From Eledone cirrhosa (taxonomy: Eukaryota), in NCBI GenBank assembly GCA_964016885.1, contig OZ024751.1, positions 5,518,001-5,582,000 of the forward strand: a stretch of 64,000 nt of DNA. Direction: 5' to 3'. The notes below the pieces were generated by a model. That model was not told the DNA's origin. It did no database searches and saw nothing but the letters and a program-made list of their open reading frames with translations. Positions 1,285 through 59,462 of this stretch are shown piece by piece; the stretch's first letter is position 1, and each line of letters starts with the position of its first letter. A program made the position numbers and the translations under genes.

Positions 1285-1725
1285 ACGGGATAACAGGTTA
1301 TCTTTATAGGCAGTCCACTTAGATGTAGTCCAGTTAATGTACCCTATAGCAGTTTTCACATGTGAATTTCATACATCTGTATCATATCAGTTCGTTTAAC
1401 ATGCTAGATTCATCATTATACTCTATTTCTTACTTATATTGATGTTATTATTTTAACTATTCAGTATCTAGTTATTTTATTATTGATATTATTGTTCTGG
1501 TTTAATACCACTCCTCTATAAAAGCCATGCCTTGTGTATCTTCTTCACTTTCGCGTGCTCTGATTAAAACGACTGGTTATAAACAAAGTATTGGAGATCG
1601 ATTGATGCAAAATCAGGCGAGTAGCGAATTCTAGACCTACCAGATCAAAGAAACAATTGTCAGCAATGTGAATAAAGTGCTTATTGTATAACAAACCATG
1701 TCACTCTTCTTTCTTGAATTATTAT
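1285..1725. mobile_element. PLE terminal-repeat insertion: short minus-strand tail (1285-1340) joined to a plus-strand pLTR (1343-1725)
   Basis: 1285-1340 resembles 42775-42830. 1343-1725 resembles the reverse complement of 42940-43345, including CTAGACCTACCAG..GAAACAATTGTCAGC. (TA)n lies on both sides. Confidence 0.75.
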
Positions 1726-1744
1726 ATATATATATATATATACA

Positions 1745-2432
1745 CGTTTAAATTTGGTGGTTTACCACTGGGTAGAACTGGTCATTTTGCAATGTTAACC
1801 GTGACGTAATATGAGAAAAGCACTCGACGCTATGCAACTCATCCATCTTCAATCTTGAATCATGTTGGTGGTGCGGGAACGGAGTAAATGTATTATAAAC
1901 TGAAATAACAGGAGGCCAAATATGTGGAATTTCCTTAATATTATATTACTGTAAACACTATGCACATTTCAATGGCCAGGTTGCCTAAGAACCCGGTAAC
2001 CTCATCAGGTGTAAATTGCGTGGTAGATGTATACCAAGGGAATGATGGTTAGCTTTAATGAAACAAGCAAAGAAGAAAAACAAAAAAAAAAAACCCAAAA
2101 AACAGAGAGGAAAAAATGTGTGCTATGGTTTTTACCCAGAAGCGGACGTAATAGCTTGCTGCCACATTGCAGGTCTACCTCTGAATGGGCGAGCAATGCT
2201 ACTACGTCCGTTTCTGGGTAAAATAACATAGCACACATTTTTTCCTCTCTGTTTTTTTTTGTTCTTGGCTTAAAGGTTATCATCATTTCGTTGGTATACA
2301 TCTATTACGAATTTACGCCTGATGAGGTCACCGGGTTCTTACGCAACCTGGCCAATGGAATGTGCATAGCGTTTACAGTAATAAATAAATTGAGGAAATT
2401 CAAAATATTTGTCCTCGTGCCATTTCACTTTA
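1745..2432. mobile_element. Palindromic PLE pLTR element with an HHR in each arm (arms ~1890-2160 / ~2191-2432, tail 1745-1889)
   Basis: Arms are reverse complements. CTGATGA at 2319-2325 (+) and TCATCAG at 2002-2008 with TTTC at 1967-1970 (-). TA-flanked. Confidence 0.85.
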
Positions 2433-2529
2433 TTATATATATATATATATATATAAGTGACATAGTCACTACTTTAAAACTGAAAGCGTATGGTCTTCAA
2501 AATATTTTTAATTAAGCATACGGTATATT

Positions 2530-3160
2530 GCCAAATATACTATACATACATTCATATTCATATATATATATATATATATATATATATATATATATATATA
2601 TATATATATATATATATATATATATATATATATATATATATATATATATATATATATATATATATTTGTATATATATATATATAGTTATATATATATATA
2701 TATTTATATATATATATATATTTATATATATATATATATATATATATATATATATATATATATATATATATATACATATTTATATATATATATATATATA
2801 TATATTTATATATATATATATATATATATATATATATATATATATATATATATATATATATATATATATATATATTTATATATATATATATAGTTATATA
2901 TATATATAACATTATATATATATATATATATATATATATTTATATATATATATATAGTTCTATATATATATAAAATTATATATATATATATATATATATA
3001 TATATGCAAAGTTTTATTTAAATTGTTGGGTTAACAACGAATATATATATATATATATATTTATATATATATATATAAAATTATATATATATATATATAT
3101 ATTTATATATATATATATATATATATATATATATATATATATATATATATATATATATAT
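2530..3160. repeat. (TA)n microsatellite containing a 35-bp PLE tail fragment (3006-3040)
   Basis: Direct reading. 3006-3040 matches 55389-55425. Confidence 0.95.
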
Positions 3161-3185
3161 CTGTGTGGGTGTGCGTGTGTGTGTA

Positions 3186-3382
3186 TCCCAGGTTCAGTCG
3201 GAGGTAACCACAGTAGGTAAGGCACTTAATATATAGTAGAGTATATAATGTTTAATATAGAAATGGCTTCTACAGGACTAGAACTGTTTCATTCGAAGGA
3301 AATCCTCAGGAAAGGCCTTTCCGGATGATTTCCTCCGAATGAAAGTTCTAGTCCTGTAGAAGCCATTTCTATATTAAACATT
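3186..3382. mobile_element. Mini palindromic PLE pLTR with HHR (arms 3247-3315 / 3316-3382, tail 3186-3246)
   Basis: Spacer-less palindrome centred on AGGCCT (3313-3318). Minus strand reads CTGAGGA-stemII-GAAACAG..CTGTA. Same family as 36955-37172, 42640-42712 and 29795-29925. Confidence 0.85.
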
Positions 3383-4689
3383 AAATAAACACACACACAC
3401 ACACACACACACACACACACACACACAGATACACACACACACACAGACACGCACGCACATATATATATATATATATATATATATATATATATATATATAT
3501 ATATAATATCATGGTGTAGAAATCAATAAGGTACATGTTCATTAAATAACATTTAGTTGTATCATAATTCAGCTCAAAGCTACGATGATGCCACTACTTC
3601 TCAAATATAACTAACAATTGCATTGAATGCTGAATGTGCTTTACTCCGGTAATTTTTATAACTACACATCTATCAATACTTCTATTCACAAATATATTTC
3701 TACTCTTTTTATGCGTCTCTTATTTTTTCTGCATCTCTTTCAAAAACGCCTTAGTTCTCGCTTTATCTTTCTCTCTCTCTCTCTCTCTCTCTCTCTCTCT
3801 CTCTCTCTCTCTCTCTCTCTCTCTCTCTCTCTCTCGCTCTCTCTCATACCCGTACACCCATACACACACACTATATGTATACAATATATACAATATATAC
3901 AGGCATATCTATCTATCTATCCATCTAACTCTTTCTGTATCTATACATCTCTCTCTCTCTCTCTCTCTCTCTCTCTATATATATATATATATATATATAT
4001 ATATATATATATATATATATATAGATACACATATATTTATATATATCCACACACACACACACACACACACATATATATATATATATATATATATATATAG
4101 ATACACATATATTTATATATATCCACACACACACACACACACACACACACACACACACATATATATATATATATATATATATATATATATATATATATAT
4201 ATATATATATATATACACATACATATACATACATACATGCATACATATATATATATGTTTATACAATTGTCCGATTGCTGTCTGTGGTATATTGCAGCAT
4301 ATTGTAGATTTTTATAGTGATTATAGTAACTATTGATAATTTTCATAAGTGATGTGTGGCTGACTCTTAGCACACTCTCCACTATTTACGACTTCAGACA
4401 ATATGTCCCGAAGTCATCCGTTAATTGCATTTTTATTCTATTGGTGTGAATGAAGAGAACGACGGGGCGGAGACTGGTTGAAACTAGCAGAGCAACTAAA
4501 TATAGCTTTTAGTAATCACATAGTTCAATTTTATTATTATTCCACTTTGAAATATGCACCATAGCACATAAGTTACAGCATGTTGAAGTATACTCCACAG
4601 TGCATAGATTACATTTAATAATATGCCGCCATTTTAATGAACAGGCTGGCGCTGTTGATCCGTTACTTTTATACTTTTAGGTGTATCTC

Positions 4690-57443: not shown

Positions 57444-58010
57444 GAAAAGTGTAATTTACTACACAAAACGAAGGTTATAGAGAAAATTGAGGTTGATAAT
57501 GGCACATGGAATATATAAGAGACAGAATACTTTTTTGTGAAAACCATATCATTTTATAAGGTAAGGAAATAATAAAGGGTATAAAAAATGACCGCTTTCG
57601 ATGGGTCTGCAAAAGCCATCTTTTCAAATGTTGATTAATATTAAGAAAAATTAATAATAAGAAGAGTTAAAATTTGAGATTTGAAAATTCAAGTATAAAA
57701 TTCATTGTGGGATTTCATAGTAGTTTTCATCTTGGTAGCCGCAAGTTGACTGCTGTGTGCCTTTCTGGTTCGTCATTCACTACCAGAATTCACTACTTGA
57801 ATTTTCAAATCTCAAATTTTAACTCTTCTTATTATTATTTTTTCTTAATATTAATCAACATTTGAAAAGATGGCTTTTGCAGACCCATCGAAACCGGTCA
57901 TTTTTTATACCCTTTATTATTTCGTTACCTTATAAAATTATATGTTTTTTCACAAAAAAGTATTCTGTCTCTTATATATTCCATGTGCCATTACCAACCT
58001 CAATTTTCTC
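57444..58010. mobile_element. Palindromic pLTR (arms 57480-57695 / 57793-58010) with U3-A8 HHRs
   Basis: TTGAAAA-GATGG..CCATC-GAAA-CCG-GTC at 57862-57899, with an inverted twin at 57588-57627. Confidence 0.88.
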
Positions 58011-58044
58011 TCTCTATATATATATTTATATATATATATATATA

Positions 58045-58160
58045 TATTTAATGTATAATAAACAATACAATATAATTACCTTATTACCAGAGGTTTCCCG
58101 AATAAGACGGATACAAGGAACGTCCGCATTTACTCGTCAGACAAGGCAATTTAAACATTG
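58045..58160 (-). repeat. Inverted copy of 57287-57400 (HHR-bearing end)
   Basis: TCGTCAG 58134-58140 and TTTC 58094-58097. Confidence 0.85.
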
Positions 58161-58267
58161 TGTATACTCTGGTATACTTTGTGTATACTCTGGGAATGTA
58201 TCTTACATTTCCCATGGAGTGCGCTGAGATACAACCGGTTCTGTCAACCCATATTATATATATATAT

Positions 58268-58947
58268 ACTAGCTAAACAACCCGTGCTTTGGACGGTTCA
58301 AGTAGCTTTCGATGTAGCTCATTAAACTAAACAAAGTAAATTTGAAAACATAGAAGAAAAACGTACTTTATGTAAACATGAAAACCTTAGGCACTATTCC
58401 AGCGAAATAATTAATATGTGTCAGAAACGTAGTCTAATCAATGCGAAAAAATAGAATAATTGTAATTCTTTGATGTATAAACCATCCTTTAGATACATTT
58501 AAGCATAATATTGTAAATGTTATGAGAAAAGTTATGAGATCAGTTAACATGAACATCAAGCTTTTAACTTAGTAATCTGTTAGAAATTGCCGGTTGTGAA
58601 ATATACGAAATGATATTGTTATTATCTTTGTTTCAAGTAGAAAGAGTAAATTAAAACCCGAATGAGGCTAATTACGAAAGATAACTCTTTATTAGGAAAG
58701 ATAACTCTTGTCTTACTTAATCACGAAAATCCACACAAATAACCGAAACTTTTTTATGTTTCCAAAGGCCCCAATATCGAATTTTGAAAACCTTTGTAGA
58801 TCATGTACAGGTTTTGTGCAAGGAGAAGCTCTGTAAAAAATTTCAAAGAAATCGCATGAATGGTTTAGAATATATGAGCCCTCATTAAAAAAGATCGACA
58901 CACATATACACATATACACATACATACAGAAATTTTCAGATTTATAT
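58268..58947 (-). mobile_element. Probable non-autonomous Helitron-derived element
   Basis: ACTAG terminus with adjacent hairpin CCGT-GCTTTGG-ACGG. The other end has AAATTTCAAAGAAATCG..GGTTTAG and an ACATAC microsatellite, a layout I associate with Helitron-derived repeats. Confidence 0.5.
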
Positions 58948-59114
58948 ACACACACACACACACACACACACACACACACACACACACACACACACACACA
59001 CACACTATATATATATATATATATTATATATATATATATATATATATATATATATATATATATGTGTGTGTGTGTGTGTGTGTGTGTGTGTGTGTGTGTG
59101 TGTGTGTGTGTGTG

Positions 59115-59462
59115 TCTGATGGTAGCTAAGATGCTTCCATGGCGGTATACCGGTTGAGCACTCTATGCTCTTACAGAGCAGAGTATGACAGAATAGAAAA
59201 CAAAAATCAGTGATGCATCTGAACTCAATTTATTGTGTGTTACATTTGTTTCCCCGGCGGACAGCTCGAGACGCGATCATTTTGGGATACACCAGTGAGA
59301 GAATATGCTCCGAAATCATTAGACGTGTCCGTCAAACCTGCGGCTCCAGAATCTCAGACAGACCCACACAATGATCGCGTCTCGAGCAGTCCGCCGGGGA
59401 AACAATTGTAACACACAATAAATTGAGTTCAGATGCATCACTGATTTTTCGTTTTCTATTCT
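59115..59462. mobile_element. Palindromic pLTR (arms 59190-59288 / 59362-59462; tail 59115-59189)
   Basis: Inverted arms, a GAAACAATTGTA HHR half with degenerate core, and AATAAA. Confidence 0.8.

Follow-up and report, generated by a model that had tools for sequence, protein, structure and literature searches.

Head-to-head insertions of Hydra-type Penelope-like elements in Eledone cirrhosa pair one tailed with one tail-less end, beside copies of a putative RNA hairpin

We analysed a window of 64,000 nt from the 3.0-Gb genome of Eledone cirrhosa (assembly GCA_964016885.1, contig OZ024751.1, positions 5,518,001–5,582,000, forward strand; positions below count from the first base of this stretch), which contains 13 inverted insertions, most of them assignable by their motifs to the Hydra clade of Penelope-like elements (PLEs). 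An earlier reading of the same sequence (the original prediction) had described these insertions as asymmetric head-to-head palindromes, and self-BLAST recovered an inverted pair of arms in all 13 intervals. In each pair one side is flush (at most 9 nt off the predicted boundary), whereas the other extends 35–167 nt further; we call this extension the tail. Both 3′ ends point outward, as shown by the strands of the open reading frames (ORFs) and by hammerhead ribozyme cores that lie in opposite orientation (e.g. 25115 minus, 25299 plus). The insertions and their parts are listed below; pLTR stands for the pseudo-long terminal repeat, families carry F numbers, and hairpin 1 and hairpin 2 are the two copies of a motif found beside the tail-less and the tailed end sites, respectively.

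1745–2432: mini-palindrome; 143-nt tail at left; hairpin 1 at 1822–1885 (−); hammerhead core at 2008 (−)
3186–3382: F1 mini-palindrome; tail at left; hammerhead at 3309 (−); right end runs into (AC)n
11752–11920 (−): solo tail-less F2 arm between TA tracts, without an inverted partner
13291–16395: F2 Hydra insertion; short tailed inverted arm at left, long ORF-bearing arm tail-less and ending at 16393; arms 99.5% identical
13355–13374 (−): hairpin 1 (ACTCC...GTCGAGT) in the F2 tail, 7 nt beyond the tail-less site; E = 3e-6 with a model whose training set included the subfamily
13613–14836 (+): 5′-truncated Hydra-type ORF; YRDD reverse transcriptase (RT) motif, CxCx5C linker, GIY-YIG-like YVGST, CxxC..E and CxH
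16294–16350 (+): type I hammerhead core in the F2 pLTR, by pattern match; mirror copy at 13481 (−)
17260–17425: F16 mini-palindrome; tail at right; weak hairpin match at 17366–17402 (E = 0.47)
24930–25397: F2 mini-palindrome; tail of ~86 nt at left; hairpin 1 at 24992–25011 (−); the two hammerheads cited above
29386–29600: F16 mini-palindrome; tail at right, with GCTCT beyond it, a possible 5′ arm of hairpin 2
36950–37172: F1 mini-palindrome; tail at left; hammerhead at 37079 (−)
42775–45103: F15 Hydra insertion; long ORF-bearing arm with 167-nt tail, short right arm tail-less; hairpin 1 at 42869–42937
43960–45009 (−): ORF of the F15 insertion
50720–51112: F5 mini-palindrome; tail at right; no clade assigned; no hairpin match
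52755–53215: diverged F2 palindrome; tail at right; hairpin 1 at 53133–53152 (+)
55389–56530: F2 palindrome; 91-nt tail at left; hairpin 1 at 55453–55472 (−)
57444–58010: F19 palindrome; 35-nt tail; no hairpin
59115–59462: F9 mini-palindrome; tail at left; hairpin 1 at 59160–59184 (−)

The fixed tail-less end that had been described for one family (family A, our F2) lies where it was reported, at 11751, 16393, 25396 and 56528, with a variant at 52755; the end at 11751 is correct, but it belongs to the solo arm rather than to an inverted pair. The insertions had also been called ribozyme-bearing, with ends usually in TA repeats. Hammerhead cores occur in several intervals, but a simple pattern match found none in four of the 13 (42775–45103, 50720–51112, 57444–58010 and 59115–59462), and the 150 of 191 Rfam matches listed for the window included no hammerhead, only sub-threshold microRNA look-alikes. 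Most ends run into TA repeats, but some abut (AC)n or (TG)n, or continue past the tail end (29600).

The palindromes are not an assembly artefact, because raw Illumina restriction-site-associated DNA (RAD) reads (three runs of one study) show the same two ends and the same strand switches. In the young family F0, loose ends run into (AT)n exactly at both end sites, with 2,886–3,356 reads per run at L184:4282 and 8,666–12,174 at L184:4362. Tailed ends thus outnumber tail-less ones by about 3:1, a ratio biased by the position of the restriction site. Confirmation by raw reads had been suggested with the original prediction, and it came from short reads, not long ones.

The Hydra clade is characterized by RWK/RWR and DKT motifs, a CxCx5C linker, the absence of CCHH, and CxxC and CxH around the E and N of the endonuclease (EN), as described in PMC8557442. 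Three window ORFs (13613–14836 plus, 43960–45009 minus and 9697–10485 plus) carry YRDD or the CxCx5C linker together with a GIY-YIG-like domain and have no CCHH, and RWK/RWR and DKT are present in the ORFs of F0, F8 and F15. Among 43 long homologues we found RWK in 38, DKT (in place of DKG) in 42, the CxCx5C linker in 41, and CxxC plus CxH around the EN residues in 42; CCHH was absent from all 43. The F0 locus L184 carries an intact ORF of 717 aa with CxCx5C, CxxC/CxH, no CCHH and a YIG/YVG motif near the C-terminus; its predicted structure (pLDDT 91.6) had telomerase RTs as its top three fold matches, and PLE RTs are the sister group of telomerase. Pfam gave no family for the window ORFs or the full ORFs (a homologue had one sub-threshold zinc-finger match), and a PDB sequence search with the ORF alignment gave no match. 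The proposed PLE origin is borne out by these motifs and fold matches. Families F0, F2, F4, F7, F8, F9, F15 and F16 lie downstream of Hydra ORFs. F6 and F19 accompany ORFs that by eye are of the CCHH type, and the F19 palindrome at 57444–58010 is probably not a Hydra element, the ORFs in other F19 pairs appearing Neptune-like.

The proposed (TA)n target holds as well: TA is the first microsatellite beyond the end in 225 of 230 arms without a tail and in 180 of 217 with one, although the calling of ends itself demanded a microsatellite. Hammerhead cores matched the pattern in F1, F2, F8, F10 and F16 and in 16 metagenome loci, but not in F9 or F15; Rfam found nothing in seven metagenome loci. 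In F0 the hammerhead (L184:4180–4262) has, by eye, the variant core UUGAGAA. The F0 unit of 3,523 nt, with its long 3′ untranslated region (UTR), exceeds the size general for the Hydra clade (<3 kb), whereas the ORF of ~700 aa is in range.

For the pairing of ends we fetched 40 ORF-anchored copies of F0 with 10 kb around each. All 31 insertions with both outer ends in view have one tailed and one tail-less end (one of the tails is 15 nt short); of the other nine copies, five lack an inverted arm and four run off the locus. Under an independent 50:50 choice this outcome has a P of 5e-10, and independent end choice is therefore rejected. The ORF-bearing arm is the tailed one in 16 insertions and the tail-less one in 15. 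A broader count drew on bulk DNA totalling 1.264 Mb, taken as five blocks at round coordinates of which one surrounds the window, and comprised 111 non-reference pairs without an internal TA run from 16 families, leaving out F5 (low-complexity false matches), F3 (a tandem array), 33 reference pairs and 17 pairs with an internal TA run. One end of each kind was found in 94 pairs (87 clear, 7 probable), one end was unclassified in 10, and seven were called same-kind, of which about four proved real on inspection. In the families tabulated, arm ends fall at two fixed positions, as in the predicted bimodal distribution. In other animals a tail-less/tailed pair was seen, by eye, at one metagenome locus (L254). 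Empty homologous sites, which could reveal TA expansion or target duplication, were sought for the 111 pairs; five pairs gave matches, none of them a clean empty site.

To call the form near-universal would be an overstatement. An inverted arm is present in 35 of the 40 young F0 copies, but 208 of 530 mapped bulk arms have no partner within 6 kb, and 12 of 30 tailed F2 arm loci have none within 1.5 kb. The window also holds pairs beyond the 13 intervals:

87–1230: F13 tail-less/tailed pair; hairpin 1 at 1109–1152
646–663 (−): hairpin 2, reached by a nested F13 piece within 87–1230 that runs through the tail end
1285–1722: F15-like insertion, by eye; tail fragment at left, tail-less end at right

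The arms of the last of these do not overlap, so that it has one end of each kind yet is not palindromic.

Each end site lies 1–8 nt 5′ of its own copy of a hairpin with the consensus GCTC-Y, variable loop, R-TN-GAGC-ACT (43 aligned hairpins). Tails of dissimilar families begin with this motif in 25 of 67 clusters, against 4.9 expected by shuffling; the outer pair of these tail-start motifs is A-T in 11, G-C in 8 and other in 3. A second hairpin starts 3–8 nt past the tail end in F0, F8, F2, F15, F4 and F13 (in the last two, as seen in read-through copies). Of 37 Hydra loci from other animals (metagenome contigs) with at least 95 nt upstream, 19 have at least two hairpins (0.26 expected by shuffling), 8 have one and 10 none. 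At eight metagenome loci the downstream pLTR copy ends 2–4 nt before hairpin 1 or hairpin 2; the remaining ones comprise two tandem read-throughs, one end 4 nt inside hairpin 2, and one locus without a called hairpin. The published Hydra-1_Ajap consensus of PMC8557442 starts with both hairpins.

The stems covary, with 96.7% of cells paired and 45 two-sided changes, a count inflated by kinship but reached in none of 500 shuffles, and the Y-R pair, which lies outside the search pattern, is C-G in 30 and U-A in 10 of the hairpins without a mismatch. Loop length is free, from about 8 to 80 nt. A family-free scan of the 1.264 Mb found 114 motifs, against three in reversed DNA; an inverted partner was detectable for 47 of the 114, and it stops into a microsatellite in 38 cases, in 31 of which the stop lies 1–8 nt before the motif. 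Each hairpin is likely a docking site for RT, with one RT for each target strand. Being located 3′ of the tail end, hairpin 2 is left out of the tailed-arm complementary DNA (cDNA) and therefore cannot act on it.

In F0, F8, F2 and F15, full-length copies show the tail extending through hairpin 2 as far as the ATG. The tail is thus the beginning of the 5′ UTR, which makes both ends of the insertion internal sites of the element RNA. This departs from the original proposal that one nick primes at the RNA 3′ end: the tail ends just before the second hairpin copy. Both end sites share 1–5 nt of TA-type microhomology with the target (TAT at each in F0). Two side observations concern these sites: at L265:2609, in another animal, an (ATTT)n tract adjoining the end repeats the final four bases of that end, and the number of TTA units differs among F4 tail ends; in both cases slippage or repeat addition at priming is possible.

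The ORF-less minis have 5′ starts of their own. Among bulk F0 arms, 49 of 57 start in a 20-nt zone at −62 to −43 of site 1 (the tail-less site), and none between −63 and −119; 21 of 34 F1 arms start at −64 to −71 and 7 of 17 F12 arms at −190 to −192. In these three families the start zone lies 25–32 nt below a TATA-like hexamer, at initiator-like sequence. Relative to the hammerhead, the zone lies inside loop II, at stem I or, in F2, ~80 nt upstream, depending on the family, which favours a transcription start over a stall at the ribozyme. We infer that the zone marks the transcription start and that mini arms resemble run-off cDNAs. Read joints at L184:4222–4225 coincide with the predicted F0 start, which by eye falls within hammerhead loop II, so that a 5′ ribozyme copy in such an mRNA could not fold. 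Solo arms L013 and L020 share their 5′ start site with palindromic arms. From one F0 mini to the next the pair of 5′ ends changes; the minis are therefore made anew rather than copied as units. The expectation of random 5′ junctions thus stands for long insertions but not for minis.

Long F0 insertions behave differently. An arm stop within 25 nt of the mini start zone was found in none of 40 direct and none of 35 inverted arms, and 33 of the 40 direct arms extend more than 120 nt past the zone into a second unit. Arm classes are correlated, with 49 of 57 bulk arms at the start zone against none of the 35 inverted partners of ORF-bearing arms. If the two arms came from separate RNAs, most partners of long arms would be expected to be minis. 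Within an insertion, 16 of 1,827 polymorphic cells distinguish the two arms, whereas between loci the figure is 19,123 of 69,498 (27.5%); this shared haplotype shows one source element, though not strictly one molecule. The 35 central F0 junctions are unique to their insertions (two rows, L190 and L202, were mis-assigned): 23 overlap by 1–7 nt, three are blunt and nine carry inserts, several of them local repeats. Such overlaps and local-repeat inserts are expected of microhomology-mediated joining of two 3′ ends. Some F2 junctions centre on short palindromes, e.g. CCGG and AGCT.

Several other loci may be noted. F0 forms tandem arrays of 3–4 units with a period of ~3.53 kb (G000:C1:437200456-437211483, C1:91476093-91487154 and C2:320551076-320558598), and at C13:21724336 and 21726739 a head-to-head F0 pair has the full ORF on both arms. 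Long arms at L205, L207, L134 and L135 have their 5′ end at site 1, about one full unit from a priming site. Solo tailed F0 arms at L187 and L202 start at the predicted hammerhead cut (unit 3419–3420), as do L120/L121 in F8, and may record cleaved RNA as template. The 310-nt tandem array of family F3 (G000:C3 block) bears a hammerhead, has an inverted tail-less end and looks retrozyme-like.

From the fixed end sites, the hairpins, the one-of-each pairing, the shared haplotypes and the junctions described above we infer, as the probable origin of these insertions, twin priming on cut (TA)n from one RNA with two putative RT docking hairpins, followed by microhomology-mediated joining. The GIY-YIG domain would nick both strands of (TA)n, one RT would load at each of the two hairpins of a single RNA, and each 3′ OH would pair with the UAU adjoining a hairpin. 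Two antisense cDNAs would then be copied towards the RNA 5′ end and, at their free 3′ ends, linked by microhomology-mediated end joining, giving a head-to-head palindrome whose tail length would equal the distance between the hairpins. On linear RNA both cDNAs would run off at a transcription start 60–190 nt above site 1, leaving ORF-less minis akin to strong-stop products, whereas a circular or concatemeric RNA, or else a jump to the 3′ pLTR copy, would let them run on into full-length and more-than-unit copies. The two-ended priming reaction of the original prediction thus remains the best reading of the fixed sites and of their paired use. A stronger version, to which we would give slightly less than an even chance, takes the RNA to have two seats for RT, the duplicated hairpin loading two telomerase-like RTs at a set distance from two UAU priming triplets, so that every integration would be a programmed double-strand twin priming; with priming so close to the RNA 5′ end, it would yield strong-stop minis unless the hammerhead had circularized the RNA.

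The competing explanations each account for some of these data. The ends could be EN cuts, the GIY-YIG domain reading a DNA motif and resolving double-stranded tandem cDNA upstream of either copy. The tail was considered most likely a product of EN-mediated resolution in PMC8557442, the Drosophila virilis EN needed the tail for recognition (as recounted in PMC11167929), the fixed distance from end to motif suits cutting and priming equally, and the excess of G-T over A-C pairs (sense strand) could be due to ordinary C-to-T decay. Compensatory stem changes around a loop of free length, however, suit a folded single strand, and cutting accounts neither for the TA microhomology with the target at each end, nor for the use of each site once per insertion, nor for the common 5′ stop of mini arms. 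With the RT starts of Poseidon in vitro coinciding with the two ends (PMC11167929), we consider EN cutting unlikely. Priming at the RNA 3′ end, from a read-through transcript that ends in the tail plus (UA)n on one side and at a fixed internal site on the other, is more doubtful still. The tailed copies in the genome do have (TA)n at their end, and transcription could run into it, one end of each kind is predicted here too, and the excess of tailed ends in the RAD reads, with its bias, points the same way. Yet the tail end is internal in the full-length RNA, with a conserved hairpin 3–8 nt further on in six families and in other animals, and a mere transcript end would give no reason for such conservation.

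Fold-back or self-priming, in which a single cDNA folds and is copied back into the inverted arm, fits the shared haplotype and the palindrome-centred F2 junctions. But a copied arm cannot exceed the first arm, so that the longer arm should always be tailed; the 16:15 split therefore rejects simple fold-back, and the window itself holds both cases (long arm tail-less at 13291, tailed at 42775). As solo arms L013 and L020 also begin where palindromic arms do, we regard an origin of this kind as quite improbable. The minis might instead be mobile units like miniature inverted-repeat transposable elements (MITEs), collapsed long palindromes or assembly artefacts, given that they are ORF-less, 130–700 bp long and TA-flanked and that long palindromes are prone to deletion. 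This we find hardly credible: the pair of 5′ ends differs in each F0 mini, the asymmetric ends match those of ORF-bearing elements, a hard upstream edge lies near the TATA–initiator spacing in three families, and the short reads show ends and strand switches independently. Two known classes were considered in the same connection and set aside. A MITE or DNA transposon has symmetric terminal inverted repeats and a shared interior, whereas the ends here are asymmetric and the junctions unique; a non-LTR retrozyme consists of tandem head-to-tail hammerhead units, whereas the minis are inverted dimers and only F3 is tandem.

Several observations weigh against twin priming at two docking hairpins. 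Unlike those of F0, most long arms of F8 end in the vicinity of the pLTR (7 of 26 at −79 to −32 of site 1, only five beyond −80). The pairing rule has exceptions, tailed/tailed at F6 C20, F6 C3 (2 of the 17 F6 pairs), F1 C11 and L029, and tail-less/tail-less at one F2 locus. The CCHH-type families F6 and F19 (type by eye) keep the rule without the hairpin, which is thus not required for it across all PLEs; the same pattern without a hairpin is seen in F12 and F21. As families were seeded from asymmetric repeats, one with a symmetric habit would escape. Related families are not independent, hence the inflated covariation counts. Folding is weak, the six UTRs folded having z from +0.04 to −2.7, and the two copies cross-pair in two of the six, between the 5′ arm of hairpin 1 and the 3′ arm of hairpin 2. 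Finally, F4, F6 and F7 have no single 5′ pile-up.

Some further features of the window may be recorded. At 45380–45530 two copies of an 18-nt stretch from the F15 tail-less end lie between TA tracts, resembling abortive cDNA stubs or a later local duplication, and similar (TTA)n stubs lie at 11500–11610. A decayed ORF remnant at 8420–9400 (minus) resembles a CCHH-type PLE endonuclease by eye and sits beside an F6 end at 9444–9559. Decayed L1/Tx1-like endonuclease and RT frames at 19855–22659 (by eye) are not related to the palindromes.

If the RNA does have two seats, a single cause would account for the ribozyme as well as for the tail, the inverted pLTR and the tandem copies. How pLTRs come to be tandem or inverted with a tail on one side, and what role the hammerhead has, are called open questions in PMC8557442 and PMC11167929; the present results would reduce them to simple experiments, with an RNA motif of 20–40 nt, a pair of exact start sites, a predicted start of the RNA and intact young ORFs. 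By analogy, an RNA element that fixes the priming position by distance would make a useful comparison with telomerase RNA. The 161 inverted pairs in 1.264 Mb would extrapolate to some hundreds of thousands genome-wide if the five non-random blocks are typical, and a genome so flooded with hairpin-forming DNA may bear on the very high double-stranded RNA potential and hyper-editing of octopus (PMC5625713).

The original prediction knew of no description of this rule-like form, but the architecture is published. In the Penelope of Adineta vaga the head-to-head arrangement is the most frequent, a tail is optional on one inverted pLTR, and TATA and initiator-like motifs occur in the pLTR, as in our elements (PMC3846280); it was explained there by self-priming on an antisense template, whereas the 16:15 split favours two target-primed cDNAs. 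A general PLE figure legend in PMC8557442 gives an inverted 5′-truncated copy with a tail often at one end only, and an Octopus Hydra family is listed in its supplement. The Hydra clade as described there shares with the window elements the motif set and the (TA)n target, and its pLTR hammerhead has pattern-matched counterparts in part of the families here; its tails are given as 30–40 nt, against 35–167 nt here (and an F0 unit of 3.5 kb), and the passages concerned mention neither a one-of-each count, nor a mini class, nor a hairpin. In Poseidon PAc, two internal RT start sites define the tail and both target strands are cut and extended in vitro, with uncleaved RNA as template and a predicted dimer (PMC11167929). 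Its starts lie in an AC-rich stem-loop inside the ORF, have no homology to the cut DNA and are the same on both strands, according to that account, whereas the sites described here lie in the 5′ UTR, have TA microhomology and a hairpin each, and are each used once per insertion.

Twin priming in L1 is similar in its working: both strands prime on one RNA and the products are joined by microhomology, the second site being variable and the pieces non-overlapping. In the present elements neither site varies and the two arms derive from one and the same stretch, and L1-type twin priming as such was set aside as a different case. The circular-template idea for hammerhead elements (PMC4209133) and retrozymes (bioRxiv 10.64898/2026.07.22.740005) agree with our more-than-unit tandem copies, which fit circular RNA, but the minis, in which the RNA 5′ end is present as an inverted dimer, are unlike the tandem ribozyme arrays of non-LTR retrozymes. 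Within the open-access Penelope literature we found no description of twin hairpins, and no one-of-each count, 16:15 test or arm-class correlation. What this work adds to a known architecture is thus the strict one-of-each count, the 16:15 test, the duplicated hairpin and the correlation between arm classes.

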